A stretch of 64,000 nucleotides of DNA from assembly GCA_044892525.1 (NCBI GenBank), contig CM097885.1:16556001-16620000 (forward strand), read 5' to 3'. Both the position numbers and the translations under genes were made by a program. Within the stretch, counting starts at the first letter, position 1, and each line of letters starts with the position of its first letter. Below are positions 3,801-60,642 of this stretch, piece after piece. The stretch is from Schmidtea polychroa (lineage: Eukaryota). The notes under the pieces were generated by a model. It was not told where the DNA came from. It made no database searches and was given only the letters and a program-made list of their open reading frames with translations.

Positions 3801-6800
3801 AATTGTTATTTATAATTTAAAAATTTATAGATTTAATAATTTGTTTATAAATTATCAATATTGTATAGTTATTTATTCCTCGTGAATGTAGGTAACCTGA
3901 TGATGATAGTGATGCTATCGAAATATATAGCGAAAAAGATGTACGAATGGCGATTTTTATTAATGAAGTCTACCGTGTTTATTTAAGTATAATAATAATT
4001 GTTTAGGATATTAAAAATTGTAGTTTAAATGTGACTTTTCACTTATGAATTACTTATAATTTCAAATTAATAGCTCTGATATATAAATATATAATCTATT
4101 AAATTTTAAGATGTTTGAAATTGATAAAAAAAAATTACACCATTTTCAAATTGAATCTACTATAAGTAGTAATGTTTGCGATTAGAAATGGATGTATTAT
4201 TCCAGCGAATCTGACTGCATGCCATTAACGATAGAATGCTCTAGCATCAGGCAGTGTACAAGTTTTATTGCTTATAAGAGATATGATTTAGAAATGGTAT
4301 AAAGAAGAAATGTTTGGTTAAATTTTTTAAATAATGTATAATTGGAAGAAGAAAAATCGATTTTCATATAAATTTAAAATAAAATGTTATCGAGTAAAGG
4401 TTGAGTTGTGTAAATTATGTGCTACATGTTAGACTTATATGTATATATGAAAAGATATTAAATCTTACAAACCAAATACTAGTTTTCCAACTAGTACGTC
4501 CTACTCCATCGTACATCCATCCTTGATAGGCAAACAAACTTTTAAGGCATTTCTTTCTTGTTATACTCAATATAACCCAAATACCGATAGAAAATGTAAA
4601 GGTCGCTATTAAATGATCTCTTGGTGATGGAAGATTAAAGTACCTAAACATAAACTTTATAAATACAAAATCTTTCGCATACAATGAAAATCATTGCAGA
4701 TAAAATGTTAACAGTAAGTTTGAAAATTCTTGATTAACCCCTTAAGTTGTATGGTCGAGTTATAATTTACCACACAAAGGCTTACATATCGGCACCATGA
4801 GGTACTTTTAAATATTATTCTGTATACAACTATGAATTATATATAGAAATAAATAGATAATAGAAATTTTATTACTTAAATCCATTAATAGCGCCAGTAC
4901 TTTACTTTATTCTAGATGGGAGATGTAGTAGATTAAAACAAGTAAGTTAAAAGTTAATTGGCGGTTAATTGCATTTTCGTACTTTCGTAACTGTTTGGAA
5001 AAGAAAAGTATTCGGCCGAATTTTTCATACATTTATTGCTAGTAAACGTGGCTGTAATGAGGTTATGAATATTCCTATAGTTATTTATATTTTACCTCTT
5101 CATCTTTGGTCTGTTTGCATTTAGAATTTCATTGACCTTCGTTATGATACCGCGCAGACGTACCAGGCAAACCATTAAACCTGTTACTGTCCTTCGTGTA
5201 AAAGTAATCGACTACAGCTTGCGCACGGATATACCGTAACTATAAACATCTGATGGAGGAATATGATAAGATATGTAATTAATCAACGATCTGAATAGGT
5301 ATTACATACAAACTACAAATTTGATCCGAAATTGAATGATCAGCAGAAAAATGTCAATAAATAAATAATCAATTTAGAAAATTTGCAGCAATATATGATA
5401 AAGTACTCCTTCAAAAGCGAATACCTACCTGTCAATCTTGTACAGAAAACATTAGGTTTAAAACAAAATTTACACAAACGGGATAATATATAGAAAAATC
5501 TACGATGTTTTTAAAATTGTAAAAATTATGTATTAATCCGCGCAGGACGGGTGCAGGTTAGGTAAAACGCGTGCGGTATTGTCATGAAAATAGAAAATTA
5601 TGAATAACGAAAAACAAAGTCAACTGAAATAAATCAAATTTGAATAGGTAAATATCAACAAAAATTTAAATGACAAAAATTATGTCAGAATGTCATTTTT
5701 TAAGATAAATTTTTTAATCTTGGATCTAAATATTCGTCCAATATGAATTAAATAAATTTTAAATAAACTGATTGTTAATATTACATTTTTAAGTTATAAT
5801 TTTAAAAAATATATTTTTTAATTTGATTATAATATAATTAATTATATAATTAATTTAAATTAAATTTTAGGCAGTGATTTTTCAGATGGAAAATTTCATT
5901 ATAATTTTAGGTTACAATTCATAACTTTAAAGTTTTATGCATGGATTTTTAAAATCATAATTTTAATATTTGTCCAATGAAATTAATTAATTAAATTTTT
6001 CAAAGTAATAATAATTATTAGAGGCTTTATCATTTAATTCTTCAATCATAATTCCAAAATTTTTTCAGTACAAAGTTGTCGTAAAGTAATATTAATCTTT
6101 TAATTATAGTAGATGGATTGGGCACCGCTGGCACAGGGAACCGCTAGCACACCTACCACCCCACCCCCCCCCCGGTTTAACATTTTTTCAAGGTCAAGTT
6201 TTAAACAAAGACATATGACTCATAAAGGTCATTTAAACAAAGACAATGGCTCATCCTATGACTCATCAGGGTCATTTCAAGGTCATGTGGCTCATCCTAG
6301 GTCATTCTCAAGGTCGTGTGGCTCATCCGATGACTCATCTAGTCATATTATTATTTTTCAAAAATATTATTAAGTGTGCTAGCGGTGACCTACTATTTGG
6401 CATGCCAAGGTCATCTGACTATTTTATTACTATTTTTCAAAATATTATTTTTTTTCAAGGTCATATTTTTAAATTTTTAATTTACAGAGTTCCCGCAAAC
6501 GAAGATTATTGAACGATGGCTCATTTTAAAGCCCAATGCAAGACCTTTCGAAAGAGCCATGTATCTTATTATTTTCATTATTATTTCTAAAGATTATTAT
6601 TATTATTTTATTTTAATATATATTTTATCCGACAAGATATTTTGTCCCTCTATGGGTACTGCTCAAATCTCACAAGGGTATTAATAATATTATTATTATT
6701 ATTATTATTACTATTATTATTTTATTCTTTCAAGGTCATATTATTATTTTTCAAAATATTATTTTTTTTTCAAGGTCTAATTAAAAATGCTCTAATTAAA

Positions 6801-20478: not shown

Positions 20479-20613
20479 TTGGAAAAGGCAATACCGAAAA
20501 TTCGTGAGTATCAATAACATCGATATATTATTGATTTATAGTCTTCAAGCTCTCTTTTTAATAAATCCAATACAAAAAAGAATCAGTGGTGAAATTGGAA
20601 AAAAGTTCTTATA
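20479..20613 (+). repeat. Repeat family A copy with a degenerate hammerhead motif
   Basis: GAAAAGGCAATACCGAAAATTCGTGAG followed by the family tail ending GTTCTTATAA. Confidence 0.75.
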
Positions 20614-22224
20614 ATGTATAGTGTACACATTAAATTTACATTCTCTTCTGGACTTCATTTTTATTGGGGATAACAGATATATTGTACATGTTCCATAGCC
20701 TTCAGAGCAACATTTCCCTTAAACATTTTCAGTTTGGTATTTCTCCAGCTTTTAGAGGAATTGTTTCTGTTTCAATTCCAAGTAATATTTTATGTTGACA
20801 GACGAATCTATATCATTTTGATAAGGTAGATTCCCCATGAAATCCCATCGTCTTTTCCGTTGAATAAATAAAAATCCTCTAATCTATTACTGATATAAAA
20901 TTCAACTACTCATTATAATCAGTAAAAAACTTCCAAAATTAAAAGATAAAAACAACCTCTCCGTTCCATTATTTATCATCTCGTTTTCGTTGATAAATGC
21001 ACGATGCAAAACGTATTTAAAACAAACAAATATTTATTAACTGATCAAAAAACAACAACAAATATATCAACCGAGACATTGTTGAAATCCCCCCATAAAC
21101 TGGGCAATATAAACAATTAAAGCGTTCATATGACTGGCAAAAATCTCCCATATTAATGCCATGAGCCTGTTTCAGAATCGCATATTTATTACCAGCATTA
21201 AGAAGAACAATGAGTCCAAAAAAATTAACTACTCACTATACTAATAATATTTTCTACAACAAAAATTGATAAACAATATATAATAAATGAACAAATCCGT
21301 ATTTATTGCCACAACAAATTACAACCGGCGACTGCTACTCTCCAAACATCCTAAACTAGTGAGTATTGCTCGCACTTTATTGGCAGATTGTTCCCATTAA
21401 TAGAACGGGACCCCTCTCTATGTATACTGTGATATTTATCCATCAAACGATTCCGATAATTGACTATAACTTCTCGTACTAGCCTTCTAACAGCATCATC
21501 ACTGTCATTTATTGTTCCAATTTGTTTTTCTAATAAACCTTCACACAACGGAACTGCGACATCATTTGAGTAAGCCATTAGGGATTTCTTTAGATATTTA
21601 TTCTCCCTTACATTATCTTTCAGCGGTTGTTGATAGTCAATTAATATTTATCAATAATGATCAACAATACAAACAGCGAAAATGAAGTTGTCAATAAAAA
21701 TCTAAAACAAATATCAAATGTTTAAATATTTTTTTTTCATAAATAAATTTCCATGTGGAGATTTTTATCTTCCATAGACAAATTGAGGAGAAATTTTTTT
21801 TTTTTTTTTGTTAATTTTTTTTCTTACTGTTCAGTGAGTAAATTATGTTTCTGATTTTGATTTATTGATTTGGGGATCTTTTTTTGATTTGTAGAGATCT
21901 TTCTGAAATGGTTGAGAGAAAAATTATGATAAAAAAAGGATATGATAAATATGAAAATAATACTTCGGATTTCTTTTTGTTTCTGTTTTTATGGTTCATT
22001 GACAATAATGTTGGATAGAACAGGATATTAAAAGTCTGATTGTTACAACGGCCATTAATTAATATATTTGGTTTTAATTAATTAAAAGTTTATTAGATTT
22101 TGTTTAAATGATGGGAAAATATTTTGAAGATATTTTATTAATTAATCAGTTATTTTAATTTATTTATTCCAACTCAAAATACGGAAATTTATTTTTTGTG
22201 CTATTTATTTAATTAATTTTTGTC

Positions 22225-22720
<496 letters not shown>

Positions 22721-28316: not shown

Positions 28317-30229
28317 TAAAATACATTTTACATGTACAAAATGTTATAAGAATTTTTTTAACTCACTTGTGAAATTGTTAGATCATGGGATTAATGAATT
28401 CATTGATTGTTACCAATATGAAACAAACAAACTCAAAACTAGCCTGCCATTAGAAATTGCATCAAATATCGCAAAGCATTTAACCAATTGTCATCAATAT
28501 AAAGAAAATTTCATCTTCAATTAATAGTGAAAAATTAAAATTTTTATTATTACAATTTAAATGAATTTCACATTCATTGGGAAGCCCAATTATCCAAAGC
28601 CGTTTTGATATTCTTTGCTAGCCAACGAAAATGGATTTCAATTAATTTAAATTATAATTACTGATTGAAACAACAAACAAACCCACGAAAAAAAGCTTCT
28701 GAAAACCTCCAGCCAATTGATTTGTTTACTGGGAAACATTTCAATTGGGAAAATTTTACGATCCCGCTTTTCATCACGCCTCTTTTTCATTCCAGTTTAG
28801 TTTTCTGCAACTCGCGAATTAACCCAAAATTTCAATTAATTTACAACAATAATTTTTGTTCCCTTTTATTGTCGTTTGGATATTTATGTTTGCCCTGTCA
28901 TTGAGATTTAATTGTTTTTTAATATTGATATCGAATGAGTTAATTGCGATCATTTCAATGACAATTAGCTGATTGATTGCGCTGGCACCTTTTTGGCACG
29001 GTGAGGATCAGAGCCCATCGAATTCCTATCCCAATTAATAATGTGTAATGTACATTGCTATTTTCCCATCCTGAAGACAGTTGTGACATAAATCTTCGTT
29101 TTATTGTCATTGTTAATTATTTTATTGTTGTGTTTATTAATAATAATCATTATTGCAATAATAGTTTCATAATGAAACAAATTATATTATACAATTATGT
29201 TGATAATATTTTCAAGGTCATTGGCAATATCAGACCGGGTTTGGGGAGAGTCTCAATTTTGCCATTATAGGAAACAAATTGAGGAGTTTAAATACACCGT
29301 TTTACATTTTGGAGGATGAAAAATAATTGGTTTTTATCAGTAAAGGTTTTTTAATTTTTGTTCACCTTTTGACCTGTTTCTGTAGTCTTTTAACATTCCA
29401 TTTTATGTTATTACTATAAGAACTTTTTTCAGTTTTCACCACTGATTTCTTTTCAATTGACATTGTATTTATTACGACTATAATTTAATGAGAAAATTAT
29501 ATATAAATATAAAACATGTCCTTTAATTAGTAAATTATTGCAGTTAGTTTCTTAAACTTTATATACGTATTTTAATGAAAGTGTAAATTGTATTTGAAGA
29601 TGATAATGTTGATGTTCCAAGCACTTGAACCCTTTCCGTATTGTCCCTTTTGTAAAGAACCCCTTTCTCTTCTTATAGGACATTTCTAATGGATGACTTT
29701 TTCGCTAAAACAAAATTTGGAAACTTTCCTCAAATTTATAATAAAACCTTTAAATTAGAACTGAAGCTTGTTCTTTGGAACTGTGACCACAATTTGAAAA
29801 TATTTTGCTCCGAAAGTTGGAGTCCAAGCAGAAACTACTCTGTAAAATAGTCCCTTATCCATAATTTAAATCTAAATTTATCCGTAACATTTATTGGTCT
29901 AGTACTGATTATATAATTGAGATATAACTCTATTTATATTAGGTATAAAGTGATAATTACATGGTAGCAGCATTAATTAAATTTAAAACAATTAAATATA
30001 TTATTCGCTGCAAAAGGCTTAAATTATCATTTAATTGTTCTATTTATATTAAAATACATTTATTATTCATAAATATATTTACTAACATTATTTTACATTA
30101 TTATATTTCAATTGATATAAAATTCTTTATAATTTCAAAATATATTCTTGTGTGAATATACAAAAATGCAGAATAAAGAAAAATGCCTGGAGAAATGATG
30201 ACTATCAAATCAGAATTTTAATCCAACAA

Positions 30230-31247
30230 TTTACGAGTTGGTCCACAATTTTCAGTTAGAAGATTTTATTGCGGATTGTGGGGAAGCCAACTCAGCAAAT
30301 CAGAAGTGTAGCTCGGCGGGACCAGGAGGGCAATTTGTCCCGGTAGTCGACATGAAGGGGCGCCTTCCTTCGAATCAGGAAAAAGAGGAGGATGCCTGTA
30401 GAATCGGCACGAGATGTCGGGCTTTCGGAAGAAGAGGAGATTGTGCGAGTAATGAAGTGTTTTGGATAGATTTATTCGCTTCTAGATTTATTCGCTTCAG
30501 TGACTTGAACTCAAAATTTGGATTTTTACAGAAATTTCACAATCTTCTTAAAAGCGAAGATTTGAATACGCTTCACAAAAATTGCTTCGATTTAGCAAAT
30601 TTTTATGGCATTGATGTAGATGGCAAAGAACTATTTAATGAAATTCAGGACTGTAAAATGTTACTTACTACGAGAGATGATGCATTAACTTCAAAACCTT
30701 TGGAACTTATTTCTTTCATTATGTCGTATGGTAATAATATCTTTACCAATTTGCGCATTGCTCTGCAAATTCTTTTAACAATTGCAGTATCAATAGCCAG
30801 TTGCGAAGGTTCCGTCAGTAAGCTTAAGCTCATTTTCTCATATCTAAGGGTGTCGTTGGGACAAGATTGTCTCTGTGATCTTGCACTTTTCAGTGTACAA
30901 TATATAAAAATAGACTTTGATGGTATTATTGACAAATTTGCGGACATGAAGGTAAGAAAAATCAATTTAGTATGATGAATTTTTGGAATGGGTGCATTGG
31001 GTGGCAGTTGACATAAACTAATTGTTGGTAAAGGTTTGTCGTTGTAGCAGTTAAAATTTATTTTTCTTCAAATTGTCTTTCTTTGGTGTCTTTTTTAGGT
31101 GATAGTGTTATTATGTCATATTGAGTATTGATTACTGTGCTCTTATTTTTCAATGGCACCGAATACTGTGCTCCAATGTTTCAGTGACATGGGGGTGCAA
31201 AATTTATATCTTGTATCCGGGCGCCGAATGCTGTCGCTACGCCTCTG
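30230..31247 (+). mobile_element. 3' half of a degenerate hAT (ZMYM1-like) transposon with the C-terminal dimerisation domain
   Basis: NLRIALQILLTIAVSIASCEGSVSKLKLI..YLR.SLGQ motif; terminus GCTACGCCTCTG. Confidence 0.88.
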
Positions 31248-35012: not shown

Positions 35013-36618
<1,606 letters not shown>

Positions 36619-37680
36619 TGGAAATATATTTTGAATTTTCTCTACTTGTCAAATTTTTATACACAATGTTCAAAACTGGCATTTTCATTGGGCTTTAATT
36701 TGATTGGCTAGTCAATTAGCGAATTGATTTTAATTGGACCATTTATAATGTAAATTTATAGTTAATTTTCAGGTTGAAAATAGAACCTGATTATGATTTT
36801 AAAAGTGAACTAGATTTATTAATTATTTATTAATTTCTTTTGTATTAGTTTTTTGATTAAATAAATGTATTTTAAATATATCTATAAATATAAAAAAAGT
36901 TCTTGAAAAATGTAGATGGACAACTGTTGAAAGAGTACTTATGATTAAACAGCTCTTATTTGAGACTTGAAATACAATTCCTGATTTGTTCTTTTGGGAG
37001 TTTGAAAATGATTAAATCAAATTTCTTTATTGTCCGTATCTCATTGGTATTTATTGAATTTGATTTGTTTAAATAAACTGATTATTGAATTATTATAAAT
37101 ATTGATCATTATCTATAAGAACACTTGAAATTTATTGCAATATTATTGATTTTCTTTTCGCCTTGAGTTTTTATTGATTAAATAAATAAATAATCAATTA
37201 ACACAATTTCTAATTATCGATTAGAGGTGCTTATTCAAAATAGAATCAAAATAATATAGTTATTAATTCAATTCTAGGAAGTTTTAAGAATTTGAAGACT
37301 TACAATCCATTAAGAGAATATTTTAATAAATTCAACTGTATTATAAAATTACTTCAGCCTTTACCTGATACTGACGTCATGAGCGGATTTTCATAGAAGC
37401 AAAATAAGCACTTGGTTAGGGGCCCGGAAAATATCCCCTTACTTTCCACGAAAAAATTTTAATTGGCAAAATTACAAGTAGAAGTAATTACATTAGTTTA
37501 CATGTCATTGACCAGTGGCTACGTGGAAAAGTTTTTTAGCGTTGTTATTGAAATTTAAAAAAACTTTATGTATGTAAAAGACACATCATATATATCATCT
37601 TTGATACCAGGACATCATTTCTTTAGCTTTTCGAACATTGAAGCTATTTTTCGTTTGTATTTAAGATTGATGATATCAAT

Positions 37681-38116: not shown

Positions 38117-40359
38117 ATTTCGACTGCGCTGGAGAATAATAGTTAAGTAAAATGAAAAGGATAGAAAACAATACATAAAAATTAGTTGACGTAACTCATC
38201 ATTATAATATATTATAAGCATGGAACATAATAAATTGCAAATTCTCTACTTCCGCAATTTAATAGACCCTAACTACAGTAGCGGATTTAGCTATAGGCGT
38301 GGGGGGGGCGAGTCGCCCCTCCACGCCCCTGTTGAATCCTAATTGGCGCCCCCCAAAGATAATTTTATGAATTTTTTCTCTTATTAGAGTTTTGTCTGTG
38401 TACAAAGTTCAACTGGATTTAAGCAACTCCAGCTGTTATACTGCATCATATTAATAATATTACATAGCTCCAGTGAAGAGCGACTGTTTGAAGTTTTTAA
38501 GCTTGTATAGGGTTTGTACATAAATCTAACCATAATAATTATTGTCAATTTGGACTTTTTTGACAAACAAATTATTGCGTTACTATTGAAATATCAAAAT
38601 AATATTCAATATTGAATTAAAATAAAATTTAAATTATAGCCAGAACGTCGTTTATATTGAAAGTTTTTTTTACAAATAACATGATTTGAAATCATTGATT
38701 TCCAGATATAATTAATAACATTAAAAAATACAGGAAGCCTCTTGAAATTAAATTGTTTTATTAATTTTTTTTTGTCTTGGGTTTTTCCAACATTGTTTGA
38801 GCGCATCTATTAAAATGTGTTTAAATTAATCGAAAAATAGAATGGTTTGGAAATTCAGGGGGGACGTGGCTCCACTTGCGAACGCCCATGACTCAGTACA
38901 TTGCTTGGGCTTTCTTTTTTTGCCCAAAAAAGCAGATACTGCTGAAATTTCCACAGCTAGTTCTACCCCATTTATGCCAACAGAATCACCATCCGTTAAA
39001 TACATTCTAAATTCTTACTATGTTTTAGCAGCATTTTTTTGTACATGGTATTTAAATCGTATATGTTGTATAAGAATTGAAAATAGTTACTATGATTACT
39101 AAGATGTTCAAACCTAGCTTCTAGTGCATTTTTTGCCTGATCAATTGTAAAATAAAAAAAATATATTTTATATTTTTCTTTTGGATCTTTAATAGGTTCC
39201 TCTCGTGCTTCGTATGAGAAGTTCCTCTTTATTCTTCTAACGCGGCGCAGTGTTATTGTTGATCCAAAATTCGCCTCCACATCAATTTAGGTAGTAAGTT
39301 CTTTTCATTGAAGGACGAAGCCGATCGAAGATTCTTAAAAAGGCATTTTGCAGTTTTGTAAAAGATCAAGTACAGAGGGTAGATCAAAATCTTTTCTTTG
39401 CAACAACTTACTTATTGGATTTATACAATTTAGTATTTTATGCCAAATAACTATTGAACACAAAAACTTAAATTGTTTAATAAAATTTAATAAACCCGAG
39501 GCCTCGTATCTTATTAAATTATAAATTTCTTGTTTTTCGAAAATGCTTAGCAAGGCGTCGTATACATCTCCCAATTGGAATCTCAGAGGCTTCAAGGCCT
39601 CTATCCTACTTTTCCATCTAGTGTCACTCAATAGTTTCAAAGTTAAACCTTGAATATGTTTTAAAAGTATTGCCCATCGAAAAGTAGATGCTGAAAAAAA
39701 TTAATATATTTTTTGGACCATGTTGAAGAAATTAGCGGCTTCCAAGGATGCTTTTGCTATACTACACGGAATATAGAATTACGTTGTTTAATTCTAGATT
39801 GCACTCCTGCTTTATCACCCCTCATATTGGACCCGTTGTCGTATCCTTGCCCTCTGATATCCTGCAAATTTAAATCTAAGTTATTAAGTTCTGCGATTAT
39901 AATATCAGACATTTGTTTTCCTGTGGATCTTTCGACTGGTAAGAAGCCTAAAAATTTTTCATTAATTTCAATTTCAACATCAGCATCAAATTTACATATC
40001 TGATTACAAGGGTCATCTGCTCTAGGTTGCTAATGTCAGTAGTACAGTCTAAAATTAAGGAAAAGTATTTTATTTCTTCAATAATATAAGACTTGACAGT
40101 TTGATGCAGCAGATCTATTAGGAGGTTCATCCTGTAAAACATTAAAATCAGTTTTTGTTTCCATAAATTTTATTTCAATAAATATCAAAATCAAATTATA
40201 TCTTCCTTAATCTTTCTTATTTAAACAAATTTTCTACGAAGATATTTTTAATTAAAATATCTTCTTATTTTGTTTTTTTAAAAATTAATCTAAACTTTAA
40301 TTTTTAAAATTTTTAATTTAAAAATTTCTTCATCATAAAACTTCCTCATATCCCCCTTC

Positions 40360-42144
40360 TTAAGAAATTTTTAAGTTTTTCCACATTTCTTTCGATCCTT
40401 TTTCCATCTTCATTTCTTCAGATGTATCGCCTGTCATGCACTTTCTCTATCACTTTGTACGGACCTTCATACCTGTCCTGGCCTTTGTGGCGTGTTTCTA
40501 CTTTTACTAATACTTCTTCTCCTACATTGAATTTTCTCCTTGTTTGTTCTTCTATTTCTTCCTTTATCGGTATTTCTTTGGACCCGTACCATTTTTCCCT
40601 GCTAATCTTTTTTCCAAAAACTATCTCTGCCGGGCTTTTCCTTGTCGTTTTTGTTTGGTTGCATTTAAAGTGAATTCGACTTCTGGTAATATCTCTGCCC
40701 AATCCGTCTTCTTTCTATCCTGTAAAGTAGCATTTATCAAATTCCGTATTGTCCTGAATTGTCTTTCTATCTGACCGTTTGTTTGGTGATGGTATGGACT
40801 CGAAAAACATAATTAAATATCTAGCATCTTTGTGAATTCTCTCATCATTCCTGATTCAAACGCCTTTCCACAATCAACTCTTATCTCCTTTGGGCATCCA
40901 AATCTTAAAATCCACTTTTCTAAAATCGTTTTCTTTATTGTTTCTTCGTCTTGTTTTGTTATCGCTGTCAAGACTTGATACTTACTATACTGATCTATTA
41001 TGCCCAATATATACTTCTTAGGTCCTTTTGTTTCTGCCAACGGTCCACATATATCCACGAATATAATTTCGAACATTTCCTTCGAATCTTGTCTTTTTAC
41101 TGGTTCTTTCGTTGTTATTGTTAAAGCCTTGGTTTTTTGACAAATCTCACAACTTCGAACAATCTTCTGAATCTTACTCCACAGGTGTTTTCCAACATAT
41201 CTATCTTTCATATAATCGGCTATCTTCTCGACTCCAGCATGACACAATAGTCTATGTATTTCCTTTATTGTTTCTTGTAACTCATTTTCAGGTATCATCT
41301 TTTTCATTCGTACTTCTTCTACAATTCCATGTTGGATGTTGCTTCTTCCCTCTTCTCTGATCGAGTCTAGTAATCTTGTTTTTATCTTTCCTTTCTTAGC
41401 TTCTTCGTGGGCCATTTGACATTGAACACACGTGTCACATTTAGTTCTCGACACCATGTCTGCATTTTGGTGATTAATACCCTTTCTGTATTCTACTCTT
41501 ATATCTAAACTGCTCAAATAATTGATCCATGTTTGGAATTGTGAAGTAATCGGCTTCTTGGTTGTCATCATAAATGTGATTGCCTTGTGGTCTGTCCTAA
41601 GCGTGAATCTTCTTCCGTAGAGATAGTGCTTAAAATGAATGCAAAAATAATATACCGCCAATAGTTCCTTTCTTGTAATACAATATCCTTTCTCGTGGCT
41701 CGTCATCGAGTGTGATCCATACGCAATTACTCTTTCCTTTCCATCTTTATCTCTTTGTGAAAGTACTGCTCCAATGGTATTGAAACTAGCGTCGGTATCT
41801 AAAATGAACTCCTTTTTCAGATCCGGAAAACATAAGATTGGCGCCGTCGTGAGTGCTAATTTCAATCCCTCAAACACGCTATTCGTTCCTTCACTCCATT
41901 CTAATTTTTTGTTACTTGGTCTGCTACATAATTGTTCTAACATCCTTGCCTTCTTTGCATAATCACTGATGAATCTTCTATAATAATTACAAATACCTAA
42001 AAAGCTTCGGAGTTTCTTTACGCAATTAGGCTTCCCAAAGTTCTGTATGGCCTGAATTTTAGATGGATCTGTCTGTACTCCTTCCTTGCTGATTATGTGT
42101 CCTAAGAATCTGATTTCTTCCTTTATTATTTGGCATTTTAACAC
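40360..42144 (-). pseudogene. pol: Pol remnant: RT C-terminus, RNase H and integrase; in-frame stop at 40813 and downstream frameshifts
   Basis: KC...EIRFLGH, FILDTDAS..IGAVLSQ, ELLAV, RTDHKA, HHCC finger, DICGP, RVDCG, SPYHHQTNGQIER, RYEGPYKV. Confidence 0.92.
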
Positions 42145-43043
42145 TCCTTGGATCTATGACCATTTCTGCTACATCTTTCACAACGTATTTCCTGACACAA
42201 TCTTCTTATATGACCTTCTTTCCCACACCCAAAACATCTTAGAGCTTTTTTATCTGGACAGTTTCTACTTATATGTCCGCTTCTATGACATGTCCAGCAT
42301 TTTATTTTACCTTTTATTGGACAATCAATTTTCGTGTGTCCTATTTTGTGGCATAACCAGCCTTCTGGCATTTCTCTTCGGATACTTTCTTCTCTCTGTT
42401 CTTTCTTCTTGTATTGTACTCTTCCCTGTGGTTCCTGATAGACCACTCTGGCGTAACTTTTCATACTGTTTATCTGCTCTCTTTGCTTGTCTACTTTGTC
42501 CATCAGAGTTAGTGTTTCCTTTATTTCTTCTGTGCTTTTTATCTTCCGTAGTATCACTTCTTTCTCAACTTCTTTATTCTCCGCACATACTATTAACATC
42601 CTTGCTGTTAATTTCTCTTTGGTAAATTCTTTATTTTCGAACAACCTATCAACAAGGTCCTCCACCTTTTTAAAATACGTTTCTATTTCTTCACCCTTCC
42701 GCTTGTAATTCAACAAGTTTTGTAGATCCTTTAAAACATCTCTTTCACGATCGAATGCCAATCGCAACCTAGCCTGGAATCCTTCGGCTTTTTTCAGTGT
42801 TTTGGCGTACACTTCCAGGAGATCCTCATCAATCATGCAAGATGTTAATCTTTCCTGGTCTTTCTTCTGCGTGATTCCCTTGGCGTCGAAATAAATTTTG
42901 CATCTTTTAATGAACTTTTCCAAATCGTCCCCTTGGTAGAATACCTTTGGTAGCAATCTTTCGGTGATTGCGTCCGTGTTTACCGCTGCCACCATATTAG
43001 GATGTTCATCCTGTAAAACATTAAAATCAGTTTTTGTTTCCAT
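42138..43043 (-). CDS. gag: Gag with multiple CCHC zinc knuckles, truncated at the deletion junction
   Basis: CWTCHRSGHISRNC, CFGCGKEGHIRRLC, CERCSRNGHRSKEC. Confidence 0.9.
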   Translation of the reverse strand: METKTDFNVLQDEHPNMVAAVNTDAITERLLPKVFYQGDDLEKFIKRCKIYFDAKGITQKKDQERLTSCMIDEDLLEVYAKTLKKAEGFQARLRLAFDRERDVLKDLQNLLNYKRKGEEIETYFKKVEDLVDRLFENKEFTKEKLTARMLIVCAENKEVEKEVILRKIKSTEEIKETLTLMDKVDKQREQINSMKSYARVVYQEPQGRVQYKKKEQREESIRREMPEGWLCHKIGHTKIDCPIKGKIKCWTCHRSGHISRNCPDKKALRCFGCGKEGHIRRLCQEIRCERCSRNGHRSKEC

Positions 43044-44458
43044 AAATTTTATTTCAATAAATATCAAAATCAAATTATATCTTCCTTAATCTTTCTTATT
43101 TAAACAAATTTTCTACGAAGATATTTTTAATTAAAATATCTTCTTATTTTGTTTTTTTAAAAATTAATCTAAACTTTAATTTTTAAAATTTTTAATTTAA
43201 AAATTTCTTCATCATAAAACTTCCTCATAAGATCTATAATCTCGTTTTGTATATTCTTCCCGAGGTAATGAACTTTAGTCTCTCCTCTTTAAGCACTCTA
43301 CGGACGTGCTCTTCCATAATGGGATCGAATTCAGATAGCAACTCAACTATTTTTAAGAAATTGCCGTTATTATGCTCAAATAACTTGTCGCTTGTACCTT
43401 GAACCTAAACTACTTTTACCAAGCATTTTTGTAATTGCTACGATTCTTAGAAATACCTCGTTCCAATGATTTGTTTCGGCATTAATAATTCTTTGAGCGG
43501 TCGCATCTATAGTTTTACAATATTTTAATCTTTGGTTCATTTCTAGCCATAATCTTTGGAAATTTCATGCTCTTTTAAAGTTTCTCAGAGATGCTTCCAA
43601 TTTTAAAACCATCCTTTGGAAGAGAACTAACTAAATAGCCGAAAATATTGCAGCAGAAGCAATAAACGCAGTTTTGTGAAAGACAGTTCACTAGCCAGTC
43701 TCGTAAAGCTTGCTCTCCATTGCTTAAAACTTGTGCATAATAATTGGCGCTAAAATGCCGACCAGCGTCATTGGAAGGAAATTTGCAATTATGCAACAGT
43801 TTAGGTGGCCCTTGTCTTACTAAAAAACTTTTTTCGGCGTCTCCTAAAATTCTTAGCCATAATGCTGGATCTGAACTCAAGGTTTGTAAAACATTTTCTG
43901 CAGGTTTCAAATTGGTGTCAATTTTTTCAATTCTTTCATGTGATCTTCGTCCATTTGTTTGTCATCATCATCCTCTGACGACTGTGTATTTTCATTTATA
44001 AACCGAACTTGACGCTGGATTCTCACAGCTGTCGTTTCTTTTGGTACAATCAGATCCAATCTTGGCTCTGGTACAACTCTGTATATAAATTTGCAAATTT
44101 AAAAATTTTAATTGTTTAATTTTGTATTTGTTTGTTTAACGGTTTGTTGATTTTACGTTGATTTTAGGTGGCAGGTTCATCTTAAGAAATTCGGCGCCCG
44201 TGAACTACTAAAAATAATGCGCCCCTCTTCGTAAGAAAATTAGATAAAGAACGTTTAGATAAATAAATACACTTGGGCGGCGAGTATACATAGGTGGTCA
44301 GCTCACATTTAAGTCCTCTATCGAAGTTTATGGGATAATAAATCATTCCAGCGCATTTGATTATAAAAATCAGTTAAATATTTTAAGAAATTGTATTAAT
44401 TTAAAAATACATGAAAACTAATAAAATGAAAAATGAATTTTTATAAAATTAATAACTA

Positions 44459-49546: not shown

Positions 49547-50219
49547 TGGCAAATTTTTTTGAAATGTTTGTTTTGAATATGTTTTTTCTGAATTTGTATA
49601 CATTAATTTAAATCACGGCGTTTGACGTTATTAGAATTAAAGTCTCAGAAAATTTGCTTTAACACTTAAAATTGACGAAATAAGTTGTTTTTTTATTGGA
49701 ATAAATCTTTTAAAATATTTAATTGTTATGACTGCAGAATTTAATTTCAGATTACTGACTAAATTCAAAAATTTAAATTAATACTTGAAATAATCAATAC
49801 AGAAAATTTTTGTGAAATAGAAAAAAACGCGGATTTAAAGTCAAAAATTAAATAAAAGATAAATGATATTTTTAATAATTATTAAACACATGCGTTAGAA
49901 TGCCGTGCAATGCACACTGACTGCTATCTGTACCAAATGTCGATATAATATGCATAACATGGTGCATCGTGTAATCTATGCTAAATTGATAATTTTATAG
50001 TACCAAATCAGAATAATCTACCAACTCGATGCGAATTGCTTATGAAGGGTTTTCCATGCGCCCATATTGATATATTACCAGTGAAAGTGATTATTTAATT
50101 TTATTGTTGAATTAAATTGTGTTATGAATGCCATGAAAAATGCCATGACCTTTATTGAAAAGAGAAATTTACACCATACCTATAATTTATTTAAAGATTT
50201 TAATTTAATTTCAGATTAA

Positions 50220-51880
50220 TATCAGACATCACAAAACAGTAGAAAATGTGAAGTTAGAAAATGGACAGTATTCAGAATAAGGGATTATCTGCAAACGTAA
50301 GACGAAAGGTCAGTCTACCCCAGTTTAGAAAACTTGATTTACAAAGTTTTTCAAATGATCAGAAATTTAAGGGAGTACTTTAATGTTCGAAGACCTAATG
50401 AACTCGATGATTCAAAAGTCTGAATTTACCAATTATTTTCGGAGTCTTAACCGATCTTAACCATAAAGCATAATGTATATTAGATATGTACAGGAAACTT
50501 TGTCATTGTGGAATAAGAAAAGTTACAGAATATATAAAAGCTAAGTATGATATGCAAAACTCAGTAAAAGATGAGATTCGAAAATGTGAAATACGTCATA
50601 AAAGAAAGACACTGACAAAAAGAGCTTGGGAAGAAATCAAGGTATCATATGAAGTATAACCATTTGAAAGAATATCAATTAATCTTTATAAATCCTGGTG
50701 AACTGATCTACTTGGCAATAAGTACTGGGTGTCTCAAAAAGGTTTCAAAAAAAATATTTATATATAGTTCATATTTTGTCTAATAACTATTTCACGGTGC
50801 ATCCCAAGTTCTTCAAGTTCTTTTGTTAATTTTTCTCTGGGTCAACTGGGCTATGAACTTTTGAAGACGCTGTTCAATATTTTATATATTTTCAAAACAC
50901 TGTCTTCTATCAAAGAATTCGAAGTCCTGAAGATACATCGGTCTTCCAAATTCGCACCAGGAGAATAAATTTGTTTACGCAATATCGCATTCTTTTTATG
51001 GTTTTAAAATTCTCTAGTGGCCATAGTTTGCACGCGGATTAACTTTACCAAGCATCCAAAAATTTAGTGTTTTCGCACAGCATCAATATTCAGTACCGTC
51101 AGCGCATTTTCAATAAAACCGATGTAGCATGGCGAGTTTACAGTGCTACCATTATGGAAAAGCTTAAACCAACATTCATCAACAAAGTTCGACACCAAAA
51201 TCATATGAGTACTCTAGAGCCGTGACAAAAATGGTTCATCGTTATTCCCGGAATCATCAAAAGTAAGTCATTCTCTTGTCTAGAGTGAAAGAGAAATTGA
51301 ACAGTTATAAATACACTTGTCATCAGATGCGAATATATATTTCTTGGCATTCCGACATTGAGAGGATTCCAAAAGTGTACAACATTGACCAATTCTTGCT
51401 AACTTTTGCTCGTAAGTCAGGGAACCCATTTGGCAGATACAGACTTAAGTTTCAATTCATTTATCCAAATTCTCTTAATATTGCTCTTTGAAAGTCCAAT
51501 TATAGATTTCAAAATTTTCACACTGGGCTGCTTATTCTCTGGAATTATAGCCATGGTCATTGAAATGTTGTCACTTACTTATACTGACGGTTGTCTGCCA
51601 AACCCTTCTTTTCTTGTCACCAAATTCTGTTCAATTATTTGTGAGTAACTACTGCTGATAAGTCGTTCCTTGCCATGACCATAATGAAAAAATTAAGGTT
51701 TCCAACAGACATCGAAATATAAATGGTTATTATGTATGATCATAAATATATATTTGTTTGAACACCCTGTACATTCTAGGAATTTTGATCATAGTAATAG
51801 ATATATTTCCTTAGCAGTCTTAAAATTTCAAGGTGAAAATTTAACTGTGAAATCACTAATAAAATATTGGATATTATAAA
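50220..51880 (+). mobile_element. Highly degenerate Gypsy integrase region interrupted by an old Tc1/mariner-like element (about 50724-51768)
   Basis: RKLCHCGIRKVTEYIK...RKCE...PFERISI and ...GNK|YILGI resume across an insert bounded by TACTGGGTGT / ACACCCTGTA. Confidence 0.6.
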
Positions 51881-52326
51881 ATATTGGCGTAACTTCAAAT
51901 TCTGGGCCCCCTTTTAAGATTTTCAAAATGGGCCCCCATACAGCTAATGACAATCTGATAGACAATAATTTTATGTTTTTAATTATCGAATCACTTTTGA
52001 CAAATTCATTTTAATGATTATAATTTATGATATTTTATTTTATTATTAATTTGTAATCTCATGCCACAACTAAAAATTGTTTTCGATTTGCATTAAAATT
52101 GATTAAATGTTATAAATGAAAATGTTACTGAATATTGTTTTATTCAATGTTATAAAATCATAAATCAACAACAATTTTGTATTTAGTACAGAACTGTCAG
52201 TACAGATGAGTATTCTAAGACAAGTCCTTGTGACGATTCTTTATCTCTGCAAATCGGTCAATGAGCTGATCAACATCCAAACTTTTGCTAGGAAGGCTTC
52301 GCAAATGACCTTATATTATAATTATT

Positions 52327-52563
52327 ATTGAATTTATTAAAAAGAGAGCTTGAAGACTATAAATCAGTAATATATCGATGTTTTTGATACTCACAAATTT
52401 TCGGCACTGCCTTTTCAAGAGAAAATTCACTTGACAAAGGCAGCGCCGAAAATTTGTGAGTATCAAAAACATCGATATATCAAAAATATCTTCAAGCTCT
52501 CTTTTTAATAAATTCAATGGAAAAAATAATCAGTGGTGAAATTGGAAAAAAAAGTTCTTATAA
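52327..52563. repeat. Family A fold-back element with two divergent hammerhead motifs (minus 52390-52421, plus 52426-52460)
   Basis: Inverted arms of about 95 bp meet at the ribozyme motifs; ATT/AAT repeats on both flanks. Confidence 0.8.
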
Positions 52564-53641
52564 TATTATAATTATTATTATTATAATTATTATAATTGTT
52601 ATTATTATTATTATTATTATAATTATTATTATAATAATAATTTTTATTATTGTACAAAAATTTGCAAAACATCATTCGCATATATTAGTCATTATGGAAT
52701 TGTCTATTAGTAAGTCTGTAAATATTTCCCGGTTTCTATTAAATGAATTGATCAATTTATTATTTTAATACCAATTGAAACGTAGCGAGTAATTAATTAA
52801 GTGAGAAAGTTAGCGTAAATGAATTCTAAACAACTCTAATTGGATTGGAATATCATTTTACTCATCCGACAATTCATCCCTGAAACATTACCATAAACCC
52901 TTGAAGCAGTTCTGAAGAAAAAAACGATAACAAATTAAACATTGAACTGTTGTAGAATTTGCTAGCGGTTATTAAATTACAAACGCAATTATCGCCCCCC
53001 GTGCCATTGGAATAATTGACTGCATCGTCCAACAACAAAACAAGCGGTTTTTTGTAATTCTCAAGTCGACTTGAACATCTGTTGGAATGTTAAAGAGCTT
53101 GAAGCTGTAGAATTTATCCACGAATTGTTGAGAATCGGGCTTTTGTTTCCCCATATTTGTTTGTCATGGAAATCAATTAAATTCATTCGGCTCCCATTGC
53201 AGAAATTAGCACCAAATTGGAAACCGGGGATTTTAATTACAAAATAATGCGCATTTCTCTTGTACTCATTTTATTTAAATTAAAACTCAAACTAAAATTC
53301 TACATATTTAAAACACAACCATAGAATGACACAAATCCCTTCGTTAATGGAACTGAAATGAAAATTCAGAAAGATTTAATTGACGGAGCCATATAGAGAA
53401 GGAAATAAGGTATTATGGAATTTGGAGCCCCTATCCTTAAAAATGTCTTCAGATTTTTCAGATTTTCTGCTGGTGCCCTTGTGGTAAGCACAGTTAGTGC
53501 AATGGATAAAATGGCTCTCACAGTAGGGTTGATAAATTCGTGGTCCATTTATAAGGCAGAAAATTTAATATTATATTTAATATTATTTAATATTTAATAT
53601 TATTTTATTCAAAACTTTTATATAAAAAAATCAATAACTAA

Positions 53642-53890
53642 TAATTAATTATAAAACAATTAAATGATAATTTAGGCCTTTTGCTGCGAATTATATATTT
53701 AATACAAATGAAAACAATTTCGACTACAAGATAGCCCTTTTCAATTTCATTTTCAATTGAAAAGGGCTATCTTATAGTTAAAAGAATTTTCATTTGTATT
53801 AAATATATTATTCGCAGCAAAGGTCTAAATTATCATTTAATTGTTTTAAAATTTAATTAATGCTGCTACCAAGTAATCATCACTTTATAG
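53642..53890. repeat. Family B fold-back element with degenerate hammerhead-like motifs at its centre; related pieces at about 29944-30040 and 56121-56170
   Basis: Inverted arms of about 100 bp; TTGAAAA-G-GGCTAT(CTT)GTAGTC-GAAA on the minus strand at 53708-53750. Confidence 0.65.
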
Positions 53891-56174
53891 TATAAAGTTT
53901 ATACTAATAATCAATTAGTATTCATTTTAGACAATTAAAAACGATACGTCCATACATTGTTACATAGAAAAGTATGTATTTCAATAAAAAATCTTTAAAT
54001 GATTACGTATTTTGTAAAATTGTATTACTGTAATAATTACTGTTATTGTTAATATTTAAATGACATTATAAAAGATTTCTTGATTAATTATATTTTACAT
54101 TGAAATTTCTACGCACTTTTTCTTTTATTTGAAAAATAAAAAAATACTCCAATTTCACATTTATTTTCTTAAATATAAATTAAATATAAATATATTTTCT
54201 TAAAAAAAAACATTTAATTTTTAAAAGCAAAAAATTTATAATTTTCTCGAATTTATTTTTTATTGATATATTTGCAAGGAGGAAATAATAAAAGCCGACA
54301 AAACAAATTATTTTTAAAAAATTTTTTAAATATAATAACCGGAAAAAAATGCTGAAAAAACATTTATCAACATTTATCAATTCAAAAAAAATATCAGTAA
54401 TTTTTTTTAACAAAAAATTTATTATTTTCTCAAATTTATTTTTTATTATGATATATTTGCGAGAAAAAAATAATAAAAAAAATTATTTAAAAAAAATCCC
54501 AAAATTATGCAAAATACATTGCTGAAGTTGAGACAGAAAGATAATATATAGCTCATTGTTATGGGGAATATATATTCATTAATAGAGTCTATAAGCGCAT
54601 GCTGCTAAAGGCAGATTAAATTATGCCCGAATAATGCAGCAATCAACATTCAATTATTGCAAGACAAAGATTACTTGAAGGTCATTTTATGAATTGGGAA
54701 AATCGGCAAAAATCATATTAGATGATCCTATGGAATTGCAAACAACAAAAATGCAATCAGCCGCTTGATTGTTGACATTGAAACATCCCAACAATAGTAT
54801 TAGTTATTTGTCTATTGAATATTCCATAGTTATTTCTATGAATTCTGTAAATTCTATGATTCCTTTGTGTTCCGCCTTTCAATTGCTGCTTTCGATTTTG
54901 TTTCCCTTTTATATTCGAGTTTTCTATTTGAAGTTTTAATTTAAATTAAATTTTATTTTTAATTATTTAAATCATTTGAAACTTTTAGTAATTTAGACTT
55001 GAAAATTGTTGGGAGAAAGCGGAACAGGATAATGATGATTTCCTGCTTCCATGTCTACATAAAAAATAGACGCCTTAAGCATCGGATGAATGCCTACGGT
55101 AATTAAATGTTACATTTTGATTAGTAGTTACTACGTTATGTTTAAGAACATCCAGAACAGTATACAAGAAAAAGGTCATTAGAAATTTTATGACATTGAT
55201 TATAGTTCTTTGAATGCTCCAGGATCTTTGAAAGGTATGTTTCCCCTTAATCTATTAACCTCTTTACCGGTTATCCTAACTATAGTTAGCTTGACCCAAA
55301 AAAATCATAAAAAACTAAAATGACCTCAAACTCGCTAATAAATAATAAAGTTATTTTATATTAGAAATAAGATACATATAGAGGTCATAGAGGTCATAAA
55401 TCTATAGTTTCTTTTAATATATTAATATTTATTTTTACTCATTCGGCGATGTAAAAGGAAATTTTTGATACCGAGGAATTTAGGAGCTTAATCCAGTTTT
55501 TACCTTTAAAGAACTGTGGAGTCAAGCTGGGATTTGGATAAATTAAAGTTATAATAGTAATGATTTAGTGGAACTTGGACGGCAACACAACACGAATGAC
55601 ATAATATTAAATCGAGTTAGACTCAAAAACAGCAAATAAAAACACCAAGTAAACGGGTAAATATGGAGGAAACAGACACAAAAATATCATTAACATAAAA
55701 ATAATATTAAAATAATAACTCGTGCAAGACGTTCAACAAGAAAATAATACAAATTTAACAAAAAAAAGAAATAACAAGATCAAAATTAATACAAAAAGAA
55801 GGCGATTATAGGGAATAAAAGATAAAAAGAAAACATAAAGTAGAATAGGAAATAGGTAAAAGTACATTTGTAATTAGCTAAATTATCAAAAAAGGTACGA
55901 GAATGGATGGAAAGTCGTCAAATCCAATATGGAGTCTCGAATGAGGTAATTAAATTAAAAATTGATAAGGATTATTTTTATAATCGTAAATTGTATTTTG
56001 ATATATAAATTATTTATTTCGTTCAATTTAAAGACAGAAAATGAAAATAAAAAGGAATATCAAAAAGCATTTGGAAATTGAAACAGATAATTATTGTTAT
56101 AATCGAAACTTATTTCATTTTATTAAATATATACTTCGCAACAAAAGGCTTATATTATAATTTAGTTGTTTGAT

Positions 56175-56402
<228 letters not shown>

Positions 56403-56994: not shown

Positions 56995-57333
<339 letters not shown>

Positions 57334-58473
57334 TAATAAAGATATTTTTATGTGATCCCATTTATTTGTATGAAATAATCATAGTTATAGTCATATATTT
57401 ATTATTTTTTAAAGAATTTTTTATTTGTTTGTTTTTTGAGCGGTTTTCCAATGATGCATTTCCAATAGGCGCGTGTCAACTTCTTCATAGCTACTTTCAA
57501 AAAGAATGACTACAAAGCAGTTGACATTCACCAGTTGTTGGTGACAGTTTGGAGCTATGAGAGCATGATTAATCTTCGCCAAATTCAGAAGAAGGAACGT
57601 GAGTTCTAATAAGGTTCGATTTCTGTCACGGGAAATGGACAAGGTAAACCTAACTAGTCAAGAACGCACACAAACATTTAGTTAATAAAATTATCAGAGG
57701 TTAACTTACTATATAATATCAGTAAAATTCTAATTCAGTATCTCTCAAACATTTTTGGACTACCATCCTTGGATGAAAATTTTAGCAGTAATACTTGCCT
57801 GTTCTAGATATTTAGGGGCTTCGCCAACAAAATAGAAGATCTTTTAAGAGTTCTCCAATACAAAGTGAAACCATATAACTATTATTAATGTTTGCTTCCT
57901 AAAGTGTAGCTGTGACCCCACACGCATGTAAGTATTTATTACACTTTAATGGCTCTTTGCAAACAATTACATCGATATAATTAAAGTGATGCAGTAAGCA
58001 TAAAATAATTTTCAATTTAGATTAATTTAAGAATTTTTCAAAGATTTATACAACAAATATTGCATTTTCGCATTTATATAGGAGTGTGTGTGTGTGTGCA
58101 TATGTAATATATTTATATATGTATTTGTTACGGATACCTAATTAATAAATTCAAAAATATTATTGAATTCTAAAAGTCATTGTTTAATATTTTCATTGGG
58201 TTTTTTATTCTTATTAAACTAATCAATATATAATCGTAAGTAACTTATTCCCACCTCAGAGTTTGCTTCTCAATTATTCAGTCATGATTGAAAAATATCT
58301 GTTCAGAACGCCAAGCCCATACATCGCATTGATATTCAACCTTACAGAAAGACTAATACGCTTTTATTTTTATGCTTTCTGTTATTTCACATTCTAACTT
58401 TTTCAAAAAGAATTTAAATAAATGTTTTTGGTACCGCTTTAAATTGGGAAAAAATGAATTACTTAGATGTGTC

Positions 58474-59619: not shown

Positions 59620-60642
59620 GAATGAAGGGTGACGCAGGGAGTCTGTTACTTTGTGTCATGACCTATCCTTTTTTCTTGTTCTTGCATTTCTGGAGTCCAA
59701 TACTAGCCGAAGTTAATGATGCAAGGGAGAATTGCACTCGGTCAATCTGTGCAAAAATTGAAAGCATCGGCTCAATTTTGCCAGGAACAACGAGGTTTTT
59801 AGTATCAGAGACAACGGAGAGAGCACTGCAGATATCCCAAACTTACGAAATTTCGACAGAGAGAAGAGTTAGAAGGCGTAAAAAGAGTTCTGGCGAGCTT
59901 AGCTGTGATACCGGTTTGACCTTAGTACAAGCAATTTTCAGAAAACAACTAGAACCAATTGGTTGACTTTACATTGAAATTACAAAACGGACACCACAGA
60001 TGAATACACTTTACGAACGATTTTTGGATATTGATAAAGAAGACTATCTTTGAAAAAATTAAGCACACTTGTACTAAGTACATAGAGTTAAATGAGCAAC
60101 TATGACCGCTGAATTTAAACGCTTTCGGCGCCATATTATCTTATATAAGCTAAGCAACGCAGAGGAATAGATTGCTCACTGGACAGCTTTAGATTTGCTT
60201 CGGTGGATTTACGTGTGGAAGTTGCAAGAGAATTTGGCTAATTTGGCTGTGACGTTAAGAATTTTTTAATTATTACTGTATCAACTGCCAGTTGTGAAAG
60301 AAGCTTCTCAATGCTTAAATTAATAAAAATATTTCACAGGTCCACAATGAACCAGGAAATATTGAATAACCTAGCAATACTTTCAAAGAGAGATTTCACT
60401 GTAGATTTCAATATTGTTAGAGAAAATTTGCACAGATTAAAGCCAGGCGATTTTAAATAAATTTAAATGCCTACAGTTTTTAATGCATTGTATTTTACTT
60501 TAATATCTGAACAACTTAAATAACTATAAAAATTTAATAAATAACCTAGTAATTTCTGTAAATAGGAATGGCTAGTAACCAGTTGTAAGGGCGAATAATT
60601 CTTGCGTTGCCCCGGAGGCTGGTAACCCACGCTACACCACTG
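59620..60642 (+). mobile_element. 3' half of a degenerate hAT transposon
   Basis: RRVRRRKKSSGE and VSTASCERSFSMLKLIK motifs; terminus GCTACACCACTG. Confidence 0.8.

Follow-up and report, generated by a model that had tools for sequence, protein, structure and literature searches.

The fold-back at positions 52330-52564 of the window (the whole stretch of 64,000 nucleotides of Schmidtea polychroa DNA that was analysed, contig CM097885.1) is a head-to-head pair of pseudo-LTR (pLTR) copies of an endonuclease-bearing (EN+) Penelope-like element (PLE) whose parent is present in the same genome. We regard its nature as a PLE pseudo-LTR insertion as almost certain, and it is probably not a self-copying ribozyme element. 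The U3-A8 hammerhead core, hammerhead pairs on opposite strands, the inverted pLTR and the one-sided tail are already published features of such elements. Judging from the genomic copies, what is added here is the rule that a long arm is joined to a short one, the usual sharing of one template by both arms, the fact that either arm may reach further 5', and a stop that falls mostly before helix I.

Structure of the insertion

The insertion covers approximately positions 52330-52564 (~235 bp) in an A+T-rich genome of 781 Mb with four large contigs. Inverted arms at about 52330-52520 form a near-perfect fold-back, complementary to 98% in a segment of 45 nt and to 88% in one of 42 nt, and the predicted folding energy of the region is -120.2 kcal/mol (z = -20.4), a stability equalled by none of 200 shuffled sequences. 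An identical 17-mer is present on both flanks, at 52313-52329 and 52563-52579 of the plus strand, and corresponds to a target-site duplication (TSD), the left copy consisting of A and T only and the right one continuing into an ATT microsatellite; its length of 17 nt is possibly inflated by the ATT-rich surroundings and by overlap with the element ends.

The short arm (52330-52423, minus strand) is a tailless inverted pLTR copy that ends just past AATAAA and covers unit positions ~6-101, and in blastn comparison with the parent copy L101 it aligned at 52327-52423, minus strand, with positions 6-104 of the unit (93% identity). The long arm (52423-52564, plus strand) is a full pLTR unit with its tail, covering unit positions 3-153, and aligned with the same copy over 52423-52564, plus strand, at unit positions 3-153 (88%). 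The head-to-head junction (52419-52428) lies at the usual 5' stop of the family, just before helix I. The arms are asymmetric, as a tail of ~50 nt (52513-52564) present in the plus arm is absent from the minus arm; it corresponds to the interval between the two 3' ends of the family (unit positions ~94-100 and 153). A stretch at 52481-52488 of the plus strand is specific to this copy, being 6 nt shorter than the family in an alignment of 30 copies, and its resemblance to the bases immediately upstream suggests a slip copy of them. The initial annotation had described two divergently oriented hammerhead motifs within a fold-back, each followed by AATAAA, and all of these were found as written: the motifs at 52425-52461 (plus) and 52424-52389 (minus), and AATAAA at 52507-52512 (plus) and 52338-52333 (minus).

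This arrangement resembles that of EN+ PLE insertions as presented in the available text of PMC3846280 and PMC8557442, with which it shares the head-to-head inverted pLTR, the palindromic junction, a tail at one end only, the variable TSD, A+T-rich or microsatellite targets and a parent in partial tandem. It differs from them in that only two pLTRs are present here, adding up to ~235 bp, and in the tail, which has ~50 nt instead of 30-40 and ends before the ATG and not inside the ORF. In addition, most copies here stop at one 5' point, unlike those insertions. Five further pieces of the same family were observed in the window, at 2163-2267, 20479-20615, 22458-22602, 29409-29460 and 57202-57338.

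The parent element

The unit that forms each arm is ~150 nt long and consists of the hammerhead, a spacer, AATAAA and the tail. Five of 30 loci anchored on the hammerhead extended upstream into shared sequence, one of them with reverse transcriptase (RT) and endonuclease frames, and a search with this locus retrieved long copies (the best 40 of 2324 candidates were scored). These copies contain a C-terminal GIY-YIG domain that passes the Pfam cut-off and an RVT_1 match that is weak (E 2e-5 to 6e-4) and falls short of it, and relatives have 641-964 amino acids, with RVT_1 in 8 of 10 among the matches listed. One copy (L102) shows the direct order unit-ATG-ORF-unit, with the ATG 7 nt after the tail, and L101 agrees with it, which identifies the unit as the pLTR and 5' leader of an EN+ PLE. 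The unit was found in direct order on both sides of the ORF in L094/L102, L084 and L101 (with a partial 5' unit), and inverted ends are also present on the long copies L084, L089, L092, L097 and L100. None of the 20 best long copies, nor any of 6 extensions, contained an uninterrupted parent ORF. The PLE origin and the inverted, truncated pLTR put forward in the initial annotation are thereby borne out, since a parent with RT and GIY-YIG exists in this genome and the unit is its leader.

Two of the parent copies (L096, L086) carry the DKT motif and the CxCX5C linker described for the Hydra clade. Unlike Hydra, a CxxC inside the GIY-YIG core and the later histidines are kept, and the parent possibly represents an intermediate lineage.

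Abundance and forms of the family

A search with the stretch under study gave 2526 candidates, of which the best 40 were scored. In exact word matches over the genome, a 35-nt hammerhead word was found 734 times, a 14-nt word 4240 times (1 in the control) and a 21-nt tail word 2014 times, and 202 head-to-head pairs had both 14-mers exact. The 4 insertions present in 40 evenly spaced 10-kb stretches, together with the 6 in the window, where the density is above that of the genome sample, point to some thousands of copies genome-wide. Short copies are in the thousands and long ones are far fewer.

Copies occur as single arms or as head-to-head pairs. Of 30 loci selected solely on the tail, an inverted partner was present in 17 and absent from 13, and every partner was tailless. 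Single-armed and ORF-bearing copies terminate at either of the two 3' sites. Contigs from four public runs, whose run type is unrecorded, cover the unit, although start, strand and level are unreadable from them; their summed depth, which is not a copy number, is far higher on the unit than upstream.

Among the loci L247, L248 and L251/L252, the insertion and its microsatellite flank were found in local tandem duplications (periods of ~266 and 334 bp), and 7 kb of sequence were found duplicated at 99.9% identity, ~0.54 Mb apart.

Anatomy of the head-to-head pairs

After collapsing identical flanks, 103 head-to-head pairs were available, and a near-identical duplicate (L008) was dropped from later counts. 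A long arm was joined to a short one in 89 of the 103, no pair had two long arms, one had two short arms, and in the remaining 13 an arm was broken or intermediate. Over the 206 arms, the 3' ends form two clusters, at unit positions 94-100 and at 151-153, and 5' starts pile up at positions 3-6, a peak that is inflated because part of the sample was picked for hammerhead words. Target duplications are variable and lie in A+T-rich DNA: repeats of at least 12 nt across the ends were present in 77% of 81 insertions versus 11% of 400 controls, and the best flanking repeat had a median of 13 nt in the family and 9 nt in mismatched controls.

Junctions differ between copies and display micro-homology, small deletions and templated insertions, with some types recurring. 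Among the 66 pairs outside the 30 top matches, the short arm reached further 5' in 26 and the long arm in 14, with 26 ties; in the 30 top matches, which are biased toward the copy under study, the figures were 1, 7 and 22, respectively. The commonest 5-nt centre occurs in both orientations (6 and 4).

The 5' stop is sharp. There were 1618 matches to unit positions 3-20 versus 517 across the upstream join, and in a hand count of the first 100 matches to positions 3-20 only 17 continued exactly into the bases upstream in the parent. Loose ends in the public contigs accumulate at unit position 3 as well. This position is the A of what we take to be an initiator-like word (YYANWYY), with a chance of occurrence of a few percent in this base composition. 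The stop and the word together suggest that transcription would start at unit position 3.

The hammerhead motifs

The plus-strand motif (52425-52461) is a minimal type I hammerhead that matches the descriptor, with a helix I of 6 bp, a U3-A8 core with one extra base, a helix II of 3 bp, a palindromic AATT helix III and U at position 17. The minimal hammerheads with palindromic helix III named in the initial annotation are thus present in the plus arm and in the family, including G10.1-C11.1 and the extra base after position 9. The minus-strand motif (52389-52424), of the same type and core, is damaged: the second pair of helix I is a U-U mismatch, the extra base between positions 9 and 10.1 is gone, and this motif too carries U17. 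It was rejected by the strict minimal-hammerhead descriptor and also missed in a looser scan. In the window together with 400 kb of genome sampled at even intervals, the strict descriptor found 3 sites, with 0 in the reversed control; over all the collected loci, which are deliberately enriched for these families, there were 142 matches and 0 in the control. In Rfam, no hammerhead family appeared among the 14 matches up to E 10 for positions 50000-55000. A microRNA hairpin was discarded as the identity of the fold-back, as all hairpin-type microRNA matches in Rfam fell below the gathering score.

The U3-A8 pair, the extra base at 9/10.1, G10.1-C11.1 and the palindromic helix III are shared with the metazoan PLE hammerheads described in the available part of PMC4209133, where family 4 of Schistosoma mansoni has the same core letters as here. 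Helix II has 3 bp here versus 7-8 bp typically in S. mansoni and 4 bp in its family 3. The same source already reports hammerhead pairs on opposite strands, 100-700 bp apart; in contrast to these, the two motifs here abut at the axis. The minimal motifs of which PMC4209133 and PMC11167929 give an account cleave weakly or require the PLE protein, and U17 is also found among published PLE motifs (PMC4209133). With respect to this base, the initial annotation was right that both arms carry U17, but this is a change of the present copy and not a trait of the family, which mostly has C17 (92 of 99 descriptor matches with the commonest helix II, and 146 of 158 aligned family arms).

Three families with different helices retain the hammerhead core. 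The maintenance of the core despite different helices in unrelated pLTRs argues for selection on the hammerhead in the parent lineages. Purifying selection on the cores of the stubs was rejected, as in 30 tail-anchored arms 11 of 212 positions were changed in the core, 16 of 267 in the helices and 47 of 1412 in the rest. Conservation of the core holds between families and not within the family, where the core is kept no better than the rest of the arm. On these counts, the hammerhead in the stubs is a passenger that appears to decay neutrally like the remaining sequence of the arm.

Folding predictions bear on whether a transcript of the palindrome could be an active ribozyme. The parent motif alone is predicted to fold with probabilities of 0.9-1.0, and in an RNA starting at the centre the plus motif is the minimum-energy fold, with pair probabilities of about 0.3. 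For RNA of the whole element, helices I and II are predicted to pair with a probability of 0.00, whichever strand is transcribed, and an RNA running through the entire palindrome is thus predicted to bury the hammerhead. Each strand comprises one sense hammerhead and its antisense, and with helices I and II unpaired in the model the two motifs would be unable to dimerize in one transcript. These predictions speak against the ribozyme-containing hairpin RNA that had been proposed from either strand. The helix II stem-loop of the family (9 nt; 52439-52447 in the window) is self-complementary, with a predicted intermolecular duplex of -14.2 kcal/mol, and a dimer could by this prediction pair through helix II besides helix III.

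Templates of the two arms

Subfamily alleles were compared between the arms of 88 long-plus-short pairs and were common to both arms in 58 of 67 cases at one site and 72 of 84 at another (odds ratios of 44 and 35). Rare substitutions shared by the arms numbered 21, versus 4.7 +/- 2.1 expected from 2000 permutations. This sharing of subfamily alleles, along with the excess of shared rare substitutions, indicates that both arms usually come from one template, although the same sharing of alleles could also arise by later gene conversion or if subfamilies were active at different times.

Discordant pairs (9 of 67 and 12 of 84, around one in seven) exceed what would be expected from a mean divergence of 2.6%, and some pairs may therefore stem from two templates. 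If two separate RNAs, one for each protein subunit, supplied the arms in most insertions, these discordant pairs would be accounted for, and the strict pairing of long with short arms and the mixed polarity would fit two priming events. The strong concordance of alleles and the surplus of common rare substitutions oppose this, and such a scheme survives only if subfamilies were active one after another. Two independent RNA templates were rejected as the main route on the allele sharing, and we consider this the least probable of the explanations weighed here.

The variants specific to one arm are informative about copying of the palindrome as a whole. Like arms shared 183 of them and unlike arms 201, and the lack of any excess among like arms suggests that palindromes are not copied whole. 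The initial annotation had seen in the stretch a non-coding, retrozyme-like element of 240 bp, a proposal that belongs to a broader one, that of an independent, non-autonomous palindromic element (retrozyme-, SINE- or MITE-like) which is transcribed and copied as a unit. The numerical dominance of short copies over long ones and the recurrence of certain junction types would be in agreement with it. Moreover, an internal promoter is known for Drosophila virilis Penelope (PMC2377424), and by analogy single stubs, or the palindromes themselves, might be transcribed if they contained one. Against this, head-to-tail repeats gave 0 matches at the spacings for either unit length, versus the 202 head-to-head pairs, in counts limited to exact 14-mers, and the two same-strand neighbours examined were duplications of the insertion and its flank. 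Besides the variants just mentioned, the heterogeneous junctions, the variable target duplications and asymmetric ends, and the predicted burial of the hammerhead in the whole RNA also disagree with an independent element, as does the presence of the same subfamily alleles in ORF-bearing copies. Taking all this together, copying of the palindrome as an element of its own seems very improbable, if marginally less so than the use of two RNAs; single long arms may serve as templates.

The comparison with non-LTR retrozymes (PMC7229834; bioRxiv 10.64898/2026.07.22.740005) leads to the same distinction. According to the available text, these are likewise short, non-coding, PLE-related and provided with type I hammerheads, which are canonical in PMC7229834, and they differ in consisting of head-to-tail repeats expressed as circles, no such repeats having been found here by the above search. 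A retrozyme was rejected on this defining feature, the tandem repeat in head-to-tail order with a hammerhead in each unit. A MITE or fold-back DNA transposon was also rejected, given the asymmetric ends, the variable TSD, the existence of single arms and the retroelement parent. The stretch at 52330-52564 should be annotated as ordinary PLE debris, and not as a MITE, a microRNA hairpin or a retrozyme.

Formation of the pairs

We lean towards the view that the pair arose in a single insertion event by double priming, the protein of the element having copied the 5' leader of one RNA twice, each time from a different start site. The GIY-YIG domain would make a staggered cut of ~10-15 nt in A+T-rich DNA, and the freed 3' ends would each prime reverse transcription at an internal position of the RNA, in one case the short site, after AATAAA, and in the other the end of the tail. 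Both cDNAs would extend to the 5' end of the RNA, which would coincide with the transcription start immediately 5' of helix I, or halt earlier, and their 3' ends would then be joined by micro-homology, often through the AATT at the start of the unit, with small deletions or templated insertions. Fill-in would complete both the palindrome and the target duplication. In the parent lineage the hammerhead would be under selection, with the RNA being copied uncut.

The long-plus-short rule, the single template and the mixed polarity favour double priming, as do the results obtained in vitro with Poseidon from Anolis carolinensis (PAc). The available account of the latter (PMC11167929) reports that the PLE protein, a predicted dimer, can cut as well as extend both strands, that two internal RT start sites bound the tail and that uncut RNA is used as template. 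The insertions analyzed here have in common with that system these two start sites and the cutting and extension of both strands, as well as an A+T-rich target and insertion with no need for hammerhead cleavage. They differ in that the PAc start sites are inside the ORF; in addition, the available text of PMC11167929 does not derive head-to-head stubs, and the model proposed here comes from genomic copies only. Points against double priming are the many single-armed copies, the discordant pairs, the interrupted ORFs of the 20 best long copies and, for the second family, a stop that lacks an initiator-like match. Taking the scheme one step further, the stubs would record PLE insertion itself, with a dimer priming both nicked strands at two fixed internal sites of one RNA, run-off at the transcription start ahead of the hammerhead, giving a 'strong-stop'-like product, and end-joining, a proposal for which we consider the balance to be even. 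If true, it would account in a single step for the inverted pLTR, the tail at one end and the palindrome at the junction.

These three features have been ascribed to antisense self-priming and endonuclease resolution in PMC3846280 and PMC8557442, and the formation of tandem and inverted PLE structures is named as an open question in the available text of PMC8557442 and PMC11167929. Our literature search, in which subscription journals and supplements were thinly covered, found no derivation of head-to-head stubs from double priming.

The published route has to be weighed in the light of the data above. In it, one strand would fold back and prime itself to make the mirror arm, resolution by the endonuclease would set the asymmetry of the tail, and the centre would be remodelled later. 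It is in good agreement with the origin of both arms mostly from one template, and small palindromes at the 5' end of the unit could self-prime, several junctions fitting them; Arkhipova et al. (2013) propose an antisense template (PMC3846280), and the tail has been attributed to EN-mediated resolution (PMC8557442). The polarity of the pairs is harder to reconcile with it: a one-way route fixes which arm reaches further 5', and each of the two polarities occurs often (26 versus 14). The centre of a long palindrome can undergo remodelling after insertion, and mixed polarity could arise in this way from one-way fold-back. A fold-back begun on the short arm, by our reasoning, could not supply the tail from sense RNA. 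Furthermore, single-armed and ORF-bearing copies end at either 3' site, as expected of two priming sites (PMC11167929). On balance, we judge fold-back self-priming unlikely, though clearly ahead of both the two-RNA scheme and the independent element, and double priming on one RNA is the reading we prefer. The thousands of short copies belonging to two unrelated families provide sharp and testable rules: a long arm paired with a short one, a single template, polarity in either direction and a fixed 5' stop.

A second family and other elements in the window

Another fold-back, at 53642-53870 and 1.1 kb away, belongs to a second PLE family, unrelated to the first, which has a tail and a U3-A8 hammerhead of its own with a helix II of 6 bp. 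Its ORF is ~27% identical to that of the first family, and the units share only a 9-mer of the hammerhead core. The pairs of this family follow the same pattern, with a long and a short arm in 28 of 30 and two long arms in none, and its 5' stop lies at the 5' edge of helix I. There was no initiator-like match at this stop, which is preceded by CAG, a sequence that could be a splice acceptor. Further pieces of the second family are found in the window at 29944-30043 and 56097-56184, and elsewhere there are young, near-identical copies in AAT microsatellites with long open ORF stretches (L219, L240). A generic U3-A8 pattern gave 4335 matches versus 47 in the control, mostly of the second family among the 100 matches listed.

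The strict descriptor is also matched by a third family, whose core is C3-G8. A family with a C3-G8 core, a 5-bp helix II and ATTAAT as helix III is represented by L092 and L225, both of which end in TTATAAT, which resembles the end of the tail in the first family. A U3-A8-like pattern in L221, L233, L238, L239 and L246 was rejected as a hammerhead, since proper helices are lacking and the sequence looks like the coding end of a different PLE endonuclease.

With respect to the remainder of the window, positions 3338-3960 correspond to the 3' end of another PLE, consisting of a GIY-YIG fragment (3338-3673) and an A+T-rich spacer, and near 3897-3935, in this 3' end, there is a C3-G8 hammerhead-like motif with a poor helix I. 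On the minus strand, frames at 40813-43085 resemble gag (zinc knuckles) and pol (RT, RNase H and integrase) of what is presumably a Ty3/gypsy-type retrotransposon, and a frame at 36085-36648 contains an HMG box that we take to be typical of SoxB proteins. Fragments at 30202-30975, 39335-39700, 43575-43961 and 59622-59966 presumably derive from hAT-type transposases, which they resemble.
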